Origin: Vulcanimicrobiota bacterium
GTDB lineage: Bacteria; Vulcanimicrobiota; Xenobia; Xenobiales; JADMJV01
Length of the DNA stretch: 64,000 nt
Assembly: GCA_050250895.1 (NCBI GenBank)
Contig: JBFWNU010000001.1
Location: 2,500,891-2,564,890 of the forward strand
Direction of reading: 5' to 3'
Shown one piece after another: positions 10,358-45,832 of the stretch; within the stretch, counting starts at the first letter, position 1, and the number at the start of each line of letters is the position of its first letter. The position numbers and the translations under genes were made by a program. The notes below the pieces were generated by a model. The model was not told the DNA's origin. It made no database searches and saw only the letters and a list, made by a program, of their open reading frames with translations.

Positions 10358-10999
10358 ATGCGCGACTTTTACAGCCTGACCAAACGCCACAAATGCTGGG
10401 ATGCTTTCACCGAATGGTCCTACATCCAATGGGCTGTGCCCGACAATTGCATCCTGCAGAGTCGAGACGAGCTGGTGGCCCTGTGCGAGTGGATCGAAGA
10501 GCACGAGATTCGGACCTATCTCGAGATTGGCTGCTGGACCGGCAAACTGGCTTCGCTGTTGCATGAGCTGTTCGCTTTTGACAAGCTGGCGGTGTGCGAT
10601 ATCGGATTGTGCAAGAAGTATCAGTTCGACCTCGAGTTGCCGCAAGACGCGGATCTTTTCCTGGGTAGCTCGTTTTCGCCCGAGTTTCTCGAGTGGCGAG
10701 CGGGCCTCGGTCCCGTCGATCTGGTGTTTCTCGATGCCGATCATACCGCTCAAGGGTTGCGCGCCGACCTGGCCAACAACTTGCGCGCTGGCTGCCGTTT
10801 TTTAGCCATCCACGACATCACCAGCGGCCTGACCGGCACCCAGGAGGTGTCGGCCCTGTGGCAGACGCTACCCGGCCCCAAGATCGAGATCGTCAAGCCC
10901 CATAGCGAGTTGGGCCTGGACGATTCCAAGACCGGTATCGGCATCCTGGTGATCGAGAATCGGCCCGAGCGAGTGGAGGAAATCCTGGCTGCCCTATGA
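10358..10999 (+). CDS. Class I SAM-dependent methyltransferase (Methyltransf_24-like)
   Basis: YLEIG..G, DLVFLDADH, IHDI motifs. Confidence 0.75.
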   Translation: MRDFYSLTKRHKCWDAFTEWSYIQWAVPDNCILQSRDELVALCEWIEEHEIRTYLEIGCWTGKLASLLHELFAFDKLAVCDIGLCKKYQFDLELPQDADLFLGSSFSPEFLEWRAGLGPVDLVFLDADHTAQGLRADLANNLRAGCRFLAIHDITSGLTGTQEVSALWQTLPGPKIEIVKPHSELGLDDSKTGIGILVIENRPERVEEILAAL

Positions 11000-28606: not shown

Positions 28607-28948
28607 CTAGTGCGAGACCTCTTCAAGCCACTCGCGCAGCACAGCCGTGCGGGCGCGGGTGGTGGTGGCCATGCTGGCGTAGTAGATCATCGGCGCCATG
28701 CTCCCGCCCTCATAGAGTGCCTGCCGGGCCTTGGCCTCGGCATCGCGGTACTTGATCCAGATGAGCTGAGCGTCCACCAGCTTCTCCCGCACCGAGGCTC
28801 CGAGTTGGGGCTTAAGCTCTTGCCAGACCTGGTTGAGTTCGCGGTCGGCGGCTTCGTAGTCTTGCAGAGCCCGGGCGTTGAGTTCGTGTTGGTTCTGGGC
28901 GAAGGTCGGGACGGTGAGGAGAATCAACAGGGCTAGAAGGTATCTCAT
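28607..28948 (-). CDS. LprI/DUF1311 family secreted protein
   Basis: Signal peptide; AD.ELN.VW, L..AQ..WIKYRDAE, GGSM.P. Confidence 0.85.
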   Translation of the reverse strand: MRYLLALLILLTVPTFAQNQHELNARALQDYEAADRELNQVWQELKPQLGASVREKLVDAQLIWIKYRDAEAKARQALYEGGSMAPMIYYASMATTTRARTAVLREWLEEVSH

Positions 28949-29010
28949 CGGTATTGCTTCCTCCGCCCGGCGCTACGCCCTGCCAAGCCGCCCGCTGAGC
29001 CCGGGCCTTG

Positions 29011-30150
29011 GCTCCCACGGAATCCCGGGAGCGTGCTCCCACAAAACCCGGGAGCTGGCCGCCGCCCGCCATGGCGCGCACCCCAGCCCGCCGCGGCAAC
29101 CCGCCGCTGCCGGGCCGGGCCGAGGCTGTGCTCCCACGAAATCCCGGAGCATGCTCCCACAAAACCTGGGAGCCGGTCGCCGCCCGCCGTGGCGCGCACC
29201 CCAGCCCGCCGCGGCAACCCGCTGCCGGGCCGGGGCTGTGCTCCCACGAAATCCCGGAGCATGCTCCCACAATACCCGGGAGCTGGCCGCCGCCCGCCCG
29301 CGCTCCAGCCCGCCAGGGCGCGCTCCCGCCCGCCGAGGCAACCCGCCGCTGAGGGGCCGAGGCTGTGCTCCCACGAAATCCCGGAGCATGCTCCCACAAA
29401 ACCTGGGAGCCGGTCGCCGCCCGCCACGGCGCGCACCCCAGCCCGCCGCGGCAACCCGCCGCTGCCGGGCCGGGGCTGTGCTCCCACGAAATCCCGGAGC
29501 ATGCTCCCGCAAAACCTGGGAGCCGGCCGCAACCCGTCGAGCCTGGGCCCTGGCTCCCACGGAATCCCGGAGCATGCTCCCCCAAAACCTGGGAGCCGGT
29601 CGCCGCCCGCCGGGCCTGGGCCCTGGCTCCCACGAAATCCCGGAGCATGCTCCCGCAAAACCCGGGAGCCGGCCGCCGCCCGCCCGCGCTCCAGCCCGCC
29701 ACGGCGCGCACCCCAGCCCGCCGCGGCAACCCGCCGCTGCCGGGCCGAGGCTGTGCTCCCACGAAATCCCGGAGCATGCTCCCCCAAAACCTGGGAGCCG
29801 GTCGCCGCCCGCCATGGCGCGCACCCCAGCCCGCCGCGGCAACCCGCCCGCCGGGCCGGGGCTGTGCTCCCACGAAATCCCGGAGCATGCTCCCACAAAC
29901 CTGGGAGCCGGCCGCCGCCCGCCAGGGCGCGCACTCCAGCCCGCCGCGGCAACCCGCCGTTCGCCGGCCGCCGCCCGCCACGGCGCGCTCCCGCCCGCCG
30001 CTCCGGCCGCAACCCGTCGTTCGCCGGACCGGCCGCCGCCCGCCCCGTCGCGCACTCCAGCCCGCGCGGCAACCCGCCGCTCGCCGACCGCTGCCCGCCA
30101 CGCCGCGCTCCAGCAACTGCGCCAGCCCGCCGCCGCCGCCGCACGCCTGG
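29011..30150. repeat. Degenerate tandem array of 9 palindromic cores with related GC-rich linkers
   Basis: Core GCTCCCACGAAATCCCGGAGCATGCTCCC.CAAAACCTGGGAGC starts at 29011, 29130, 29240, 29367, 29480, 29553, 29626, 29755 and 29866. Linkers share CCAGCCCGCCGCGGCAACCCG and decay to ~30150. Confidence 0.92.
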
Positions 30151-30187
30151 CCACGGCCAGCCAGCGAAACAAAATTTGAAATAGGGG

Positions 30188-30216
30188 TTGACACCGGCAA
30201 ATATCAGTCGTATACT
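30188..30216 (+). promoter_or_regulatory. Sigma70-type promoter
   Basis: TTGACA (30188-30193), 17-nt spacer, TATACT (30211-30216); AT-rich UP-like tract at 30167-30183. Confidence 0.88.
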
Positions 30217-30419
30217 CTCAACAGCAAATATTGCTAAAGCAGCGAAGAACTATGTATCTCGATAACACCAACATAATGATCGAAAGCCCGTTTACGGGCT
30301 GCTCGTCCCACGTCCCCGGCAAACCCGGCGTTATGCGGCGCGGTTGGGAACTAGGACAAACTCGATCGATGGCAGGGGTGCAAGCCTTGTAAAAATGGGC
30401 TTGAATATCGGTTCCGCCG

Positions 30420-30460
30420 AAACCCGCCACTGCCGCGACTATCGCCCTGGCGGGTTTTTT
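30420..30460 (+). terminator. Terminator/attenuator hairpin in the operon leader
   Basis: AAACCCGCCA...TGGCGGGTTTTTT, ending 22 nt before the ATG at 30483. Confidence 0.6.
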
Positions 30461-30482
30461 AATTCAACAAAGGAGAACAAAG

Positions 30483-30689
30483 ATGATGACCATTCACGTG
30501 CGTTTTGAGGGCAAGAGCTTTGATCTCGACGGCCGGAACCTGAGCCTGAACACTCAGGCCAGCGACCGCGAGATTCGCAACAGCTTGGCTCGTTACCTGG
30601 AGGTCGAGGTCGGTCGCTTCCAGGACTACGTAATCGACCGGCGTCCTAGCGGCGCTGTGGTCGTGCGACCCGAAGCCGTCTACGGCTAA
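30483..30689 (+). CDS. Putative ubiquitin-like (beta-grasp) protein with C-terminal Gly
   Basis: Strong RBS AAGGAG; 68 aa; apparent beta-beta-alpha-beta-beta pattern; ends RPEAVYG. The fold call is inference. Confidence 0.65.
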   Translation: MMTIHVRFEGKSFDLDGRNLSLNTQASDREIRNSLARYLEVEVGRFQDYVIDRRPSGAVVVRPEAVYG

Positions 30690-30810
30690 CTCCGAGCAAC
30701 CCCAACGGGTCGCTGGTTCGGTTCGCCTCCCCCTCCTGTAGCCGAACCACAGACTGACCATGCCAACCCTCGATGTGGGGTGCCCGGGTTCGCCCGGGCA
30801 CCCCGGCCCA

Positions 30811-30987
30811 AAAGTCTTATCGCTTCGCGACCCTATCTCTGAAGCTTACATACCTCTTGAAGAGCAGTTTGATCGAAAGATCCTGTAGGTTCGAATCCTA
30901 CCAACTCGACTATCGAGTTGTGGCGAAATTGGTAAACGCGACTGTTGGTTACTGCGCTTTAGTAACTTGCGCGAAGCGACATTCTTT
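30811..30987 (+). ncRNA. Circularly permuted tRNA-like RNA 1 (YrlA/Y-RNA-like)
   Basis: Order: variable arm GATC-GAAA-GATC; T-arm GTAGG-TTCGAAT-CCTAC (30885-30901); closed acceptor CAACTCG-ACTAT-CGAGTTG; Leu-like D-arm TGGCGAAATTGGTAAACGC. Outer stem 30820-29/30970-79. Confidence 0.8.
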
Positions 30988-31150
30988 GTCCCGGTCGGGC
31001 CGCGCGCCCTTACCGATGAAGCATACATACTGGTAAAAACGACTTCCAATCGTTAGTAGGTTCGAATCCTGCCACCTCCACCACATGGGGGTGTGCAACG
31101 GGCCGCAAGGCCCACTGCTTTGTGAACTCGCGCGATGGCCTGGTCGGGAC
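30988..31150 (+). ncRNA. Circularly permuted tRNA-like RNA 2 (YrlA/Y-RNA-like)
   Basis: T-arm GTAGG-TTCGAAT-CCTGC (31056-72); closed acceptor CACCTCC-ACCACAT-GGGGGTG; GGGCC-GCAA-GGCCC in the D-arm position; outer stem GTCCCG...CGGGAC. Confidence 0.75.
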
Positions 31151-31177
31151 TATTTTTGCAGAACGGAGGTGCACGAG

Positions 31178-31261
31178 ATGAGACATAACCTGGGGAACAT
31201 GTGGGGCGATCGCTCCGGCGTGCGCCCGCCCATCTTCTATCCGACCGCAGGTCGCGGTTGA
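31178..31261 (+). CDS. Putative 27-aa small ORF
   Basis: GGAGGT RBS 7 nt upstream; MRHNLGNMWGDRSGVRPPIFYPTAGRG. Confidence 0.35.
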   Translation: MRHNLGNMWGDRSGVRPPIFYPTAGRG

Positions 31262-31267
31262 GTTGAC

Positions 31268-31373
31268 CCGCCTGGTCCCGTAGGGAAGGGCGAGCAGAAT
31301 AGGGGTTCGACTCCCCCCATCCCGAGCCACCGGGGTGGTCCCGTGGGTGGCGGGTAGCACTCGTCCAGGCAGG
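31268..31373 (+). ncRNA. Circularly permuted tRNA-like RNA 3
   Basis: GGGG-TTCGACT-CCCC (31302-16); CCATCCCG-AGCCAC-CGGGGTGG; D-like CCCG-TGGGTGG-CGGG; closed by GGCGAG/CTCGTC and GCCTG/CAGGC. Confidence 0.65.
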
Positions 31374-31400
31374 CATCCAGTTCGATTTTAGGAGGCCCTC

Positions 31401-31553
31401 GTGGCGATACGACGACGCGTCGTTGCCGGGCGGCCCCTGGCTCACCGATACAATCACCAGCGTTGGACCAGCACCTGGCAGTTAACCAGGCAGCGCGAGC
31501 TCGTCTATCGTTTGGTCAGGGCCAGGCGCCGTCCGCGCCGACGCACACCATGA
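31401..31553 (+). CDS. Putative 50-aa Arg-rich small protein
   Basis: AGGAGG RBS then GTG; 16 of 50 residues are Arg. Confidence 0.4.
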   Translation: MAIRRRVVAGRPLAHRYNHQRWTSTWQLTRQRELVYRLVRARRRPRRRTP

Positions 31554-31629
31554 GAGACGGTCGCCGCTAGACGGCAGACCGTAGAGAGTTTCCGGGAACG
31601 GCCACGGCCCGCGCCGGGCAGAGTTATGA

Positions 31630-33087
<1,458 letters not shown>

Positions 33088-33214
33088 GCTGTCGTTCCGG
33101 CCGCGGTGACAGGGGCGGGAGAGCAATCTCCCGCCCCGTTCCCCGGCCGGGCGACGGTAACAACGGTCTCTTTAGAGTGCCGGCACACGGCCTTGTTTTC
33201 GTCCCTGAGTCCTT

Positions 33215-33455
33215 GGACCGGTAGCTCAGCGGTTAGAGTGCTGCACTGTTGAGGGTGACGCAGACAGGGTCTCCCGTCGCCAGACGTGCCCTTCTTCCGC
33301 CATGCGGACCGTCGCTTCTTGGGAAGTAGAACTAGCTACTACCGCAAGAAGACGCCAATCCGCCTGTCGAAAGAATTGCTACGTCTGGCTCGGTCCGACC
33401 CCGTCAGCGGCCCCCTATGCAGAAGTCGTGGGTTCGAATCCCATCCGGTTCGCCA
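33215..33455 (+). ncRNA. tRNA-Asn-like RNA with ~165-nt structured insertion in the anticodon loop
   Basis: Acceptor GGACCGG/CCGGTTC + GCCA; D-arm GCTC-AGCGGTTA-GAGT; anticodon stem CTGCA/TGCAG enclosing 172 nt; T-arm GTGGG-TTCGAAT-CCCAT. Confidence 0.85.
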
Positions 33456-33576
33456 AAGAAACACTGGAAAACAGATTGGAGGAGATAATCGGCCCGGGTC
33501 CGCGCCCGGGCCTGGTCCATTTCTCTAGAGTAGATCGGTGGCCGGCCTCGAAAGCCGGCACTCTAGGAGGTGAGAG

Positions 33577-37161
<3,585 letters not shown>

Positions 37162-44358: not shown

Positions 44359-45201
44359 ATGGATGTTCGCCGCCTCATCGACGATCTGGCCGACCAGGAG
44401 GAGCGCTTTCGCCAGCAGTTATTCGTGGCTCCGGCCATCGCCCGGGGCAAGGTGAGAGCCAGAGTGGCGGGTTTGGTACAAAGCTTCGTCACCCACCCGC
44501 GATCGTTCGAGGGCTGGGGTGTCTTTCAAGCCAACCAGAGCCATCAGGCCGTGCTCCAAGAAGAGGCCGGTCCGGCCCAACGCGAGGCCTACTTGCGCCT
44601 GCTCAAGCCGCTGCGGCTGAGGCTTGTCATGCACCTGTTCGGCTCGCTCTGGCTGGCCTATCCCAGCAACGAGTCCGATGCTCGCCAACGCTTCGGCCTG
44701 TGCCAGCCCCTGCCGGTGGCTCTGGTGAGCGAGGGGCAGGCCTTCGAAGCCATCATCGCCCGCCACGACGGAAGCGGCTTCTGGTTTGACCAGCTCGACC
44801 GTCGCGAGCACCCGCGCCACGCCGAGAATCTGCGGCAGGCGCTGGCTCAGGGGAGCCTTGGGGAAGAGCTGAACTGGACCGATTTGACCCCCGAGATGAC
44901 GACCGTCTACTCGATGGTGGCCGAACGCTTGCGCAGCCTCGGCCAGGGTCGGGATGAGGCCCGGCTCAAGCGGGCCCTGGCGACGGGGGGTGGAGAGCTG
45001 CTGGGCTTCACCGAGCGCGACGAACACTGGGTGGTGGAGTGGGTCGATGGTCGCGGCCAGCGACATACTTCGGCCATTTCTCGGGCCGACCTGACCGTGC
45101 TCTCGGCCGGCATCTGCCTGGCCGGCGAAGACCAGAAGTTCGACCTCGAGTCGCTGGTGGGGGTGGTCGAGGGCAGTGACGAGTGGGACGATTATGACTG
45201 A
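44359..45201 (+). CDS. Hypothetical protein with putative E2-like C-terminal Cys motif
   Basis: C-terminal HTS......LTVLSAGICLAG; stop overlaps the ThiF start. Confidence 0.6.
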   Translation: MDVRRLIDDLADQEERFRQQLFVAPAIARGKVRARVAGLVQSFVTHPRSFEGWGVFQANQSHQAVLQEEAGPAQREAYLRLLKPLRLRLVMHLFGSLWLAYPSNESDARQRFGLCQPLPVALVSEGQAFEAIIARHDGSGFWFDQLDRREHPRHAENLRQALAQGSLGEELNWTDLTPEMTTVYSMVAERLRSLGQGRDEARLKRALATGGGELLGFTERDEHWVVEWVDGRGQRHTSAISRADLTVLSAGICLAGEDQKFDLESLVGVVEGSDEWDDYD

Positions 45202-45832
45202 CCGAACCTACCATGAACGCCTCTTTCGCGGCGGGCCCAACATGGAGCGCCTCAAAGGCTGCAAGATCACCATCTGTGGGGCCGGCGCGCTGGGGGCCAA
45301 TCTGGTCGAGAATCTGGCTCGAGCGGGCTTTGAGTCCTTGACCGTCATCGACCGGGATCGGGTAGAAGAGCGGAATCTGTCGACCCAGCCTTACTACCGG
45401 GCCGATGTGGGAGCCCACAAAGCGACCATTCTGGCCAACGCCGTCTATCGGGCCGTGGGGGTCTCGGTGGAAGGGGTGGCCAGCGAGTTGCTGGAGCGCA
45501 ACGTCAAGAAACTGCTCAAGGGAGCCGACCTGGTGGTCGATTGTTTTGACAACAGTCCGTCTCGCCAGCTGGTGACCGACCATTGCGCCAAGAGCGGCCA
45601 GGCCTGCCTGCATGCGGGCCTGGCCGCCGACTATGCCGAGGTGCTCTGGAACGAGGTGTATCGCGTCCCTTCGCCGGCTCAAGACGACCTCTGCGACTAT
45701 CCCCTGGCCCGCAATCTGGTGATGCTGACGGTGGCCGTGGCCAGCGAAGTGGTCGTCGGCTATGTCCTTGGTGGCAGCCGCCGCAACCTGACCATCACCC
45801 TGGCTGATCTAGCTGTGCGTGACTTCGTCTAA
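45194..45832 (+). CDS. ThiF/E1 family adenylyltransferase
   Basis: GAGALG, IDRDRVEERNLSTQ, K, VVDCFDN; ATG 45194 overlaps the upstream gene by 8 nt. Confidence 0.92.
   Translation: MTDRTYHERLFRGGPNMERLKGCKITICGAGALGANLVENLARAGFESLTVIDRDRVEERNLSTQPYYRADVGAHKATILANAVYRAVGVSVEGVASELLERNVKKLLKGADLVVDCFDNSPSRQLVTDHCAKSGQACLHAGLAADYAEVLWNEVYRVPSPAQDDLCDYPLARNLVMLTVAVASEVVVGYVLGGSRRNLTITLADLAVRDFV

Follow-up and report, generated by a model that had tools for sequence, protein, structure and literature searches.

The 64,000-nucleotide (nt) stretch of DNA considered here (hereafter, the window) comes from a Vulcanimicrobiota bacterium (GenBank assembly GCA_050250895.1, contig JBFWNU010000001.1, positions 2,500,891 to 2,564,890 of the forward strand) and contains, at 30811-31373, an array of three units in each of which a tRNA-like structure is laid out with its 3' half before its 5' half. 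It appears quite likely that this array encodes Y RNAs of the YrlA type, belonging to a divergent particle built on a Ro60/Rsr-like protein, the gene for which starts at 31657. The kind of RNA is already known; the observation, which was made in an earlier note from the sequence alone, is real, and the structure it proposed is right as regards units 1 and 2, and for unit 3 it is plausible. Under the mechanism that we favor, the 5' and 3' ends of each RNA would pair in a protein-binding stem, with the middle part adopting a permuted tRNA fold. The protein partner would be the far-diverged Ro60/Rsr homolog encoded downstream, present here in two copies, and the conserved scaffold of the RNA (helix P1, the CCYNAC/AACUU internal loop, helix P2 and the UACAUAC box, all described below) would constitute its binding site. 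The tRNA-like module, in turn, might be shown to a tRNA-recognizing factor or might shield the RNA, as proposed for YrlA.

Anatomy of the three units

In units 1-3, all on the + strand, the elements come in the order read by the earlier note: a T-arm, then a closed acceptor hairpin of 7-8 perfect base pairs (bp), then a D-arm or a substitute for it. The tetranucleotides ACTA (30909-30912), ACCA (31080-31083) and GCCA (31326-31329) are all present at the positions claimed. Their proposed placement at or next to the discriminator-CCA position holds to different degrees: the ACCA of unit 2 occupies exactly tRNA positions 73-76, the GCCA of unit 3 lies one base beyond, and unit 1 has CTA. In the list below, R1 is a covariance model that was built from permuted units and searched in 57 sources; the folding energies (fold z) do not distinguish the strands.

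30817-30984, + strand: unit 1, Y-RNA-like RNA (R1 113.9 bits, full length; fold z -3.25)
30820-30830 with 30969-30979, + strand: unit 1, scaffold helix P1
30839-30845 with 30956-30962, + strand: unit 1, scaffold helix P2
30871-30882, + strand: unit 1, variable-arm hairpin GATC-GAAA-GATC of a Leu-like permuted module
30885-30901, + strand: unit 1, T-arm GTAGG-TTCGAAT-CCTAC, from sequence
30902-30920, + strand: unit 1, closed acceptor CAACTCGA-CTA-TCGAGTTG with the loop CTA
30923-30939, + strand: unit 1, D-arm GCG..CGC, from sequence
30988-31150, + strand: unit 2, Y-RNA-like RNA (R1 97.4 bits over 30994-31145; fold z -5.36, 0 of 200 shuffles as good)
30988-31007 with 31133-31150, + strand: unit 2, long P1 with three G.U pairs, possible on the + strand only
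Within unit 2, + strand: scaffold helix P2, ATGAAGC/GCTTTGT
31038-31054, + strand: unit 2, anticodon-arm-like hairpin AACGA-CUUCCAA-UCGUU (loop CTTCCAA in DNA)
31056-31072, + strand: unit 2, T-arm, from sequence
31073-31079, + strand: unit 2, acceptor 3' strand CACCTCC, followed by ACCA (31080-31083) and CAT
31087-31093, + strand: unit 2, acceptor 5' strand GGGGGTG, giving G3.U70 with A73
31100-31113, + strand: unit 2, hairpin GGGCC-GCAA-GGCCC replacing the D-arm
31270-31370, + strand: unit 3, compact permuted tRNA-like element without the family scaffold (motif and one ortholog)
Within 31270-31370, + strand: unit 3, outer stem GCCTGG/CCAGGC, small hairpin and D-like hairpin
31301-31317, + strand: unit 3, T-arm of 4 bp plus one A.C
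31318-31337, + strand: unit 3, closed acceptor with the loop AGCCAC, consisting of CATCCCG (31318-31324), A, GCCA (31326-31329), C and CGGGGTG (31331-31337)

The T-arms of all three units are of the GGTTCGAATCC type. When a strict pattern (5-bp T-arm, TTCRANN loop and a perfect 7-bp hairpin immediately after) was scanned over both strands of the organism's own 9.5-Mb genome, three matches were obtained, namely, units 1 and 2 and C1:2597555, the last of which was later shown to be a member of the same RNA family as units 1 and 2. Since the arrangement occurs only three times in the whole genome, the array is not a chance pattern. Unit 1 has an ortholog in the same-genus genome G001 (L005:930-1091, R1 101.2 bits), and the orthologs of unit 2 keep the anticodon-arm-like hairpin with an altered stem (UCAGA/UCUGA). 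In the two-sequence consensus fold of unit 3 and its G001 counterpart, the T-arm, the outer stem and the acceptor are kept, the acceptor with two compensatory changes and one half change. Unit 3 is a probable third tRNA-like RNA of another class, to which we attach lower confidence.

Standard annotation has little to say about these units. ARAGORN called no tRNA in the window, and the only match there at Rfam gathering thresholds is to tRNA at 33215-33452, an element discussed below; the best sub-threshold signal in the array is a match of unit 2 (31056-31093) to tmRNA_permuted (26.8 bits, gathering 47). One further candidate was rejected, an Rfam tRNA match (23 bits, gathering 29) that joins the 5' half of unit 1 and the 3' half of unit 2 into a chimeric tRNA with a 106-nt insert: 2 of its 7 acceptor pairs are broken, whereas pairing within each unit is perfect.

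A conserved scaffold with covarying helices

Units 1 and 2 belong to a large RNA family with a common scaffold. As read from the upstream regions, this scaffold consists of the terminal helix P1, which closes with CGCGC/GCGCG, followed by an internal loop (5' strand CCYNAC, 3' strand AACUU) and an inner part made up of helix P2 (GAAGC/GCUUU) and then the UACAUAC box; its conserved words are CCYNAC, GAAGC-UACAUAC and GCUUU-N-AACUUGCGCG. Three kinds of insert are found in this scaffold: a tRNA-like module in permuted order, which is what units 1 and 2 have; one in normal order; or a small hairpin alone. The normal-order modules score 28-59 bits with the Rfam tRNA model, and ARAGORN assigns them odd identities (73-nt 'Leu' and 'Tyr', a 'Stop', a four-base anticodon).

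For alignment A4, which comprises 22 permuted units from several phyla, five helices were written down and then counted. Complementary pairs make up 90.1% of the cells vs 72.3% in shuffled alignments; both sides change in 26 of the 34 pairs, a figure reached by 0 of 500 shuffles; and the covariation score is 0.514 vs 0.196 upon shuffling and 0.096-0.124 with slid partners. By helix, the pairs of A4 that change on both sides are:

P1: 9 of 11
P2: 4 of 7
T-arm: 3 of 5
Acceptor: 6 of 6, plus the closing pair
D-arm: 3 of 4

Covariation in the stems, the lack of which had been named beforehand as refuting if combined with a lack of discrete RNAs, is present in the family of units 1 and 2. The designation of the units as circularly permuted tRNA mimics is borne out for units 1 and 2 by this covariation in every helix across 22 units and by their conserved place beside a Ro60-like gene; for unit 3, the basis is the motif and one ortholog.

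The R1 search yielded 103 full-length matches, 100 of them distinct. Related loci had been drawn from 26 of 61 related genomes and from 25 named contigs, whose titles include cyanobacteria, Candidatus Xenobia/Eremiobacterota, Acidobacteriota and Chloroflexota; the partial matches in small genomes without the protein, confined to model positions 44-127, were left out of the counts. A loose regular expression for the scaffold hit 25 places in the genome, most of them unconfirmed by R1, and R1 was used instead. The sorting of modules by type is crude: 59 of 100 units received no class from the parser, and unit-1-type modules whose acceptors have 5 bp escaped it. The parser called 25 modules permuted, and three of these (L018, L019 and L020), which have the normal order, were dropped before NCCA was counted, leaving 22. 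The organism's own genome harbors six full-length R1 copies: besides units 1 and 2, there are four that lie outside the window:

C1:2597494-2597650: complete permuted family copy (R1 93.1 bits; GCCA at 73-76; anticodon-like loop CUGUUAA)
C1:1894731-1894866: normal-order family copy (R1 58.6 bits)
C4:33169-33251, - strand: minimal family copy (R1 57.7 bits)
C1:3292867-3292948, - strand: minimal family copy (R1 46.4 bits)

Elsewhere in the window, at 10751-10798 (+), a hairpin GCGCGCC-GACCU...AACUUGCGCGC echoes the words of P1 and the internal loop and carries no insert; its R1 match is weak (12 bits, E 0.37) and may be due to chance. As for the partial matches to R1 positions 44-127, in G017, G021, G034 and other small genomes of family f3 they come in adjacent pairs, and those in protein-less small genomes resemble tandem tRNA gene junctions. 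Such junctions form a false-positive class for permuted-tRNA searches and a possible evolutionary source of modules of this kind.

A far-diverged Ro60/Rsr homolog downstream of the array

Downstream of the array, the window encodes two paralogous proteins, out of four Ro-like paralogs in this genome:

31657-33087, + strand: Ro60/Rsr-like protein 1, 476 amino acids (aa), with a helical TROVE-like ring and a C-terminal von Willebrand factor A (vWA) domain with a metal ion-dependent adhesion site (MIDAS)
33936-35345, + strand: Ro60/Rsr-like protein 2, 469 aa, a paralog that shares 61% identity with protein 1 across 471 residues

With protein 1 as a query, Pfam returns only VWA_2 at 18.6 bits, below the cut-off of 27, and neither NCBIfam nor PADLOC gives a match for the Ro-like proteins. 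A profile of 45 homologs, in contrast, retrieves from the PDB human Ro60 (9nen, 1.7e-16), a phage TROVE protein (9l5y/9kop, 2e-13), Xenopus Ro (1yvp, 2e-12) and Deinococcus radiodurans Rsr (2nvo, 9e-7); protein 2 alone finds the TROVE protein 9l5y with phmmer (E 0.0024). The AlphaFold2 (AF2) model of protein 1 has a mean predicted local distance difference test score (pLDDT) of 90.5, and the first 12 Foldseek matches listed for it are all Ro60, Rsr or TROVE proteins, aligned over the full length with template modeling (TM) scores of 0.54-0.67 and 13-17% identity. The MIDAS residues D300, S302, S304, T362 and D386 are invariant in the 45 sequences. Together, the profile matches, the Foldseek matches and the invariant MIDAS identify protein 1, as judged from sequence and predicted structure, as a far-diverged homolog of Ro60/Rsr. 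It shares with the solved proteins (1yvp, 2nvo, 9nen, 9l5y) the full-length fold, the order of the two domains and the MIDAS, and differs from them in being about 50 residues shorter, in its low identity (13-17%) and in being missed by Pfam TROVE and NCBIfam.

The clade to which this protein belongs is large. Among 8000 candidates scored, 2431 proteins match at E<=0.001; where named, they are called hypothetical or VWA domain-containing. Counted by cluster representatives, the clade has 952 at E<=0.001. Members from cyanobacteria, Candidatus Xenobia/Eremiobacterota, Acidobacteriota and Chloroflexota records are about 60% identical, and at array loci they are typically 470-480 aa long.

The Ro-like gene at 31657 follows units 1-3 on the same + strand at a distance of 284-840 nt, and this placement recurs. 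In 23 named loci with 64 R1 matches, 49 matches are upstream on the gene strand, 13 upstream on the other strand and 2 downstream; the 13 on the other strand are arrays of 8 and 5 units, on the minus strand and divergent from the gene, in L050 (Ktedonobacterales) and L052 (Chloroflexia). Arrays comprise 2-9 units and extend up to 2.9 kb from the gene, and in many loci the nearest unit is 59-160 nt from the start codon. The 61 relatives are distributed as follows:

Protein and full-length RNA: 20
Protein, no full-length RNA: 6
No protein found, full-length RNA: 2 (genomes 82-88% complete)
Neither: 33

Since the relatives are kin and not independent, this co-occurrence of RNA and protein is an association and not a statistical test.

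Two more elements lie among these genes. Between unit 3 and the Ro-like gene, at 31461-31505 (+), a 45-nt block is 96% identical in G001, with flanks that differ; it includes an anticodon-arm-like hairpin, CCUGG-CAGUUAA-CCAGG. The other is located between the two Ro-like genes:

33215-33452, + strand: tRNA-like element in the normal order with encoded GCCA (Rfam tRNA 44.5 bits, above gathering; fold z -5.95)

This element has a perfect 7-bp acceptor, a D-arm and a T-arm, with an arm of about 165 nt in the place of the anticodon loop and without the family scaffold; in 30 relatives, no DNA homolog was found that extends past its T-arm. A normal tRNA-Asn(GTT) is encoded elsewhere in the genome. 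The element may be the RNA partner of the second Ro-like paralog.

The close linkage with the gene raises the alternative that the units are a cis-acting leader of the Ro-like gene, serving as autoregulatory sites or as sensors of tRNA-binding factors, rather than free RNAs. Their location directly upstream on the same strand, with the nearest unit within 59-160 nt of the start in many loci, accords with such a role, as do the 96% identity of the 31461-31505 block in G001 and the lack of a promoter or terminator consensus between units and gene (a consensus scan gave 0 promoters and one terminator-like site in unit 2, below the shuffle mean). A leader appears unlikely, however, in view of arrays that hold up to 9 units and stretch as far as 2.9 kb from the gene, of two Chloroflexota loci whose units have the opposite orientation, and of the four copies in this genome that are unlinked to Ro-like genes. 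Furthermore, co-transcription does not exclude free RNAs, since in Mycobacterium smegmatis YrlA and YrlB are made as one precursor upstream of rsr that is processed to free RNAs (PMC4201824).

Comparison with YrlA RNAs

The resemblance to YrlA (Rfam RF02553; Chen et al. 2014, PMC4201824; Wang et al. 2018, preprint 10.1101/312249) concerns both genomic context and structure. The YrlA-like RNAs described in PMC4201824 share a strand with the Ro60 orthologs and are encoded less than 4 kb from them, and the units considered here are likewise upstream of a Ro60-type gene on its strand, often with more than one RNA per locus. In YrlA, as here, the 5' and 3' ends pair in a long stem that encloses a T-arm, a closed acceptor-like stem-loop and a D-arm; unit 1 fits this order, unit 2 has a GCAA hairpin for the D-arm, and unit 3 has a D-like hairpin. 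YrlA RNAs are further characterized by in vivo binding to the Ro60 ortholog and by modification of their T and D loops by TruB and DusA. The 3' strand of the Rfam consensus reads AaAcUuG, to be compared with AACUUG in the present family, and six related permuted units score 29.7-43.3 bits with the Rfam YrlA model, with E down to 2e-6, against a threshold of 69.

There are also differences. The scaffold here consists of two helices with a conserved loop of its own and the UACAUAC box. YrlA of Salmonella Typhimurium lacks an anticodon-arm-like hairpin, whereas unit 2 and several of its relatives have one, together with an exact encoded NCCA. The same scaffold also bears a normal-order tRNA-like module or a mere hairpin, and the partner clade is missed by Pfam TROVE and is encoded in a cassette with a predicted ubiquitin-like protein and a ThiF enzyme.

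Several observations weigh against the assignment of the array to YrlA-type RNAs of a Ro-like particle. The check with the Rfam YrlA model that the earlier note had proposed failed for the array itself: in searches of 30000-34000 and 30780-31420, the units had no match at E<=10. The Ro-binding motif of the YrlA stem, GNCGAAN0-1G (PMC4201824), is absent from the stems of units 1-3. Pfam TROVE (PF05731) matches neither paralog and nothing in the whole genome, with the control positive in 2 of 14 named genomes. That the RNAs are bound by the Ro-like protein, we infer from position and co-occurrence, and the four unlinked copies in this genome are distant from any Ro-like gene, in unrelated neighborhoods that have nothing in common. 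The structure imposed on A4 was drawn from the same, mutually related sequences, which inflates the comparison with the controls. Unit 1 carries CTA and not CCA, and of the 25 modules classed as permuted by the parser, including three judged false, 14 lack CCA. Unit 3 is the weakest part: among 40 relatives it has a DNA homolog in G001 only (L005:1233), it has neither an R1 match nor the scaffold, and its folding energy is unremarkable (z -1.28, equaled by 24 of 200 shuffles). Of no weight either way is a search for RNA runs, which pointed to 8 metatranscriptome runs from 2 studies, each with 9-15% of the sampled words; contigs assembled from 4 of the runs cover, at 95% likeness, 30700-30770, the first Ro-like gene and 33121-33514, with none on 30797-31766. 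As they represent a related strain, they are uninformative on the expression of the array.

A cassette with a predicted ubiquitin-like protein and a ThiF-family enzyme

The Ro-like gene and the RNA array are part of a cassette that contains three more genes:

30483-30689, + strand: first cassette gene, a 68-aa small protein ending in ...VRPEAVYG, with a predicted beta-grasp (ubiquitin-like) fold
44359-45201, + strand: conserved protein of 280 aa (about 290 aa in relatives), delineated by clustering of open reading frames (ORFs) and by tblastn from the relatives' proteins
45176-45832, + strand: last cassette gene, a ThiF-family, E1-like adenylating enzyme of 218 aa (Pfam ThiF 114.6 bits)

The 68-aa protein is encoded upstream of the RNA array in 34 locus rows by tblastn and in 31 loci by ORF clustering, and its C-terminal residue, G68, is invariant in the 27 sequences of alignment A6. 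Its AF2 model (pLDDT 91.3) has the topology beta-beta-alpha-beta-beta; Foldseek gives no match at E<=0.001, with FAT10, NEDD8, ubiquitin and SUMO on top (TM about 0.5), and there is no match in Pfam, NCBIfam or PADLOC. The gene for the 280-aa protein, for which Pfam, NCBIfam, PADLOC and Atlas provide no family lead, directly follows the Ro-like gene in 25 related loci and is here found about 9 kb further downstream; the ThiF gene is present in 21 related loci. PADLOC has no defense model that matches the Ro-like, 68-aa or 280-aa proteins. Upstream of the small protein, at 28878-30179 (+), there is a 433-aa ORF without a Pfam family and with strong internal repeats; several repeat-bearing paralogs occur in the genome, and an overlapping ORF in another frame makes this gene call doubtful.

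A complex model of the ThiF enzyme with the 68-aa protein scores 0.82, vs 0.01 for the best of 3 controls; of the solved complexes, 58 of 80 reached the mark applied to such scores, as did 2 of 110 mismatched pairs. Agreement between the runs is at least 100% of the contacts, the partner pLDDT is >= 90, and the tail residues 62-68 are placed against residues 35-40, 123-127 and 147-155 of the enzyme, at its nucleotide-binding and active-site region. Because comparable complexes, MoaD-MoeB and ThiS-ThiF, have been solved, the model may show no more than likeness to a ubiquitin-like/E1 pair and is no proof of binding. The ThiS-ThiF, MoaD-MoeB and TtuB-TtuC pairs and the bacterial Bil/Bub systems combine a small beta-grasp protein with a C-terminal glycine and an adjacent ThiF-family enzyme; the present pair would have the same make-up, as predicted, but differs in having a tail that ends in YG or FG and not GG, and in that no E2, JAB or sulfur-transfer partner is recognized. 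The rsr operon of Salmonella carries RtcB/RtcA instead. No link between Ro60/TROVE and a ubiquitin-like/ThiF pair, and nothing on the cassette, turned up in the literature searched. These three conserved neighboring genes suggest that the Ro-like particle may work with a ubiquitin-like activation or sulfur-relay step.

It could be argued that the RNAs are mainly substrates or cofactors of the ubiquitin-like/ThiF pair, for instance, in T-loop thiolation, with the Ro-like protein as a platform only. In Thermus, the ubiquitin-like/E1 pair TtuB/TtuC brings sulfur to tRNA position 54, and here the small protein is present in 31 loci and the enzyme in 21, with the modeled tail (62-68) at the nucleotide-binding region. 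We regard this as distinctly unlikely, considering that no tRNA-thiolase (PP-loop) gene is recognized in the cassette, the 280-aa protein having no family, that the small protein ends in a single G and not GG, and that nothing ties the enzyme to RNA.

Encoded CCA and possible processing

As regards the RNAs themselves, 8 of the 22 permuted modules kept by the strict parser, representing about four lineages, have NCCA precisely at positions 73-76; at any given place, CCA would occur by chance in 1 of 64 cases. The set includes unit 2, its nearly identical orthologs L008, L009 and L010, L012, C1:2597494 and two Chloroflexota units. In unit 2 and the orthologs L008/L009/L010/L012, CCA is constant while the discriminator (A or G), the stem and the linker vary. 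The linker that follows CCA has between 3 and 34 nt in the NCCA set (CAU, CGU, or 34 nt with a hairpin of its own), and such a free length after a fixed CCA would be expected if the linker were removed. Outside the parser set, in L048:2178-2471 (titled Blastocatellia bacterium, acidobacterial), about 190 nt separate ACCA from the 5' strand; this long acceptor loop is packed with short repeats of the GGACTGA type. Given that 14 of 25 modules are without CCA, a free CCA end cannot be general.

The combination of G3.U70 with A73, the alanine identity set, is seen in unit 2, L012, L050:266 and L048:2178, and also in the organism's own tRNA-Ala genes and tmRNA. It is because of this alanine-type acceptor that unit 2 partially matches tmRNA_permuted. 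The earlier note had likened the units to two-piece tmRNA (RF04321), and the likeness holds for the acceptor and the T-arm: both have a T-arm, an CCACCUCCACCA-type alanine acceptor strand, a linker (excised in two-piece tmRNA, and possibly so here) and a GGGGGUG 5' strand. It does not hold elsewhere. The match of unit 2 covers only positions 36-93 of the 213 in the model; and unit 2 has no tag reading frame or pseudoknots. The genome, moreover, encodes a standard one-piece tmRNA (C3:741155-741536) with the tag ANDNVVQFRGRAPQRALALAA.

For processing, there is a precedent in M. smegmatis YrlA, which has a 7-bp acceptor. RNase P cleaves this RNA in vitro, at the site that had been predicted; in vivo it occurs as two halves, and addition of CA to the 5' half completes CCA (PMC4201824). 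Unit 2 shares the features named for this RNA, the 7-bp acceptor and an encoded ACCA. By analogy, in unit 2 and possibly in unit 1, RNase P would cut at the 5' side of the acceptor, the linker would be trimmed to the encoded CCA, and the product would be a two-piece RNA joined by the scaffold, as seen with the mycobacterial YrlA. For unit 2, we consider RNase P opening that exposes the encoded CCA to be about an even bet. Whether tRNA-processing and tRNA-charging enzymes act on Y RNAs was left open for M. smegmatis by Chen et al. (PMC4201824). A bolder scheme, which we deem improbable, is that RNase P makes the unit-2-type RNAs two-piece and Ro-bound, and that the free ACCA is charged with alanine, in line with the G3.U70/A73 set of unit 2 and three relatives, or, more radically, with the C-terminal glycine of the ubiquitin-like protein after its activation by ThiF; if true, the product of the cassette would be an aminoacyl or protein mark, linked to RNA and held on a Ro-like platform.

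Relation to tRNA genes

The possibility that the units are decayed tRNA genes or tandem-tRNA junctions devoid of function deserves attention because the organism's own tRNA genes encode CCA, so that two genes in tandem would produce the series T-arm, acceptor strand, NCCA, spacer, acceptor strand and D-arm; indeed, R1 partial matches occur at apparent tandem tRNA genes, which may be the origin of the modules. As an explanation of the array, this is very improbable: a scaffold with covarying helices, conserved across phyla, encloses units 1 and 2, no complete tRNA is found beside the units, their place by the Ro-like gene is conserved, and ordinary tRNA genes already number 64 in the genome, with Gly-UCC, Asn-GUU and the Leu set among them.

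In the red alga Cyanidioschyzon merolae, there are permuted tRNA genes (Soma et al. 2007, cited in 10.1101/312249) that resemble the units in having the 3' half first and an acceptor closed by a linker, which is opened by RNase P or RNase Z, as it may be here; they yield ordinary decoding tRNAs via splicing-type ligation, whereas here the ends, as far as sequence goes, appear to form the conserved scaffold. That the units are true genes of this kind, giving decoding tRNAs via a circular intermediate, is hardly credible, even though the order is 3' half, linker, 5' half and anticodon-arm-like loops are present (CUUCCAA in unit 2, CUGUUAA in C1:2597494), because unit 2 has no D-arm, the ends are a long conserved scaffold without a splice motif, normal tRNA genes with the same anticodons exist in the genome, and equivalents of the splicing endonuclease are, according to 10.1101/312249, unreported in bacteria.

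Implications

What gives these findings their value is a Ro-like clade that had gone unrecognized, together with arrays in which modules of both orders occur and with the association with a ubiquitin-like/ThiF pair. In the search described by Chen et al., bacterial Y RNAs were sought only in genomes with an annotated TROVE protein (PMC4201824). Since the present clade escapes such annotation, Ro/Y-RNA particles, if the assignment proposed here is true, are more widespread and more varied than the census indicates; the species tables of Chen et al. 2014 could already list members of the family. Such particles would include arrays of 2-9 RNAs, with both module orders on one scaffold, and would be associated with a ubiquitin-like/E1 pair. 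A clean test of the action of tRNA-processing and tRNA-charging enzymes on Y RNAs is offered by those units that combine a 7-bp acceptor with an exact encoded CCA, and the presence of the cassette in cultured cyanobacteria (records titled Spirulina or Microcoleus) makes it accessible to experiment.

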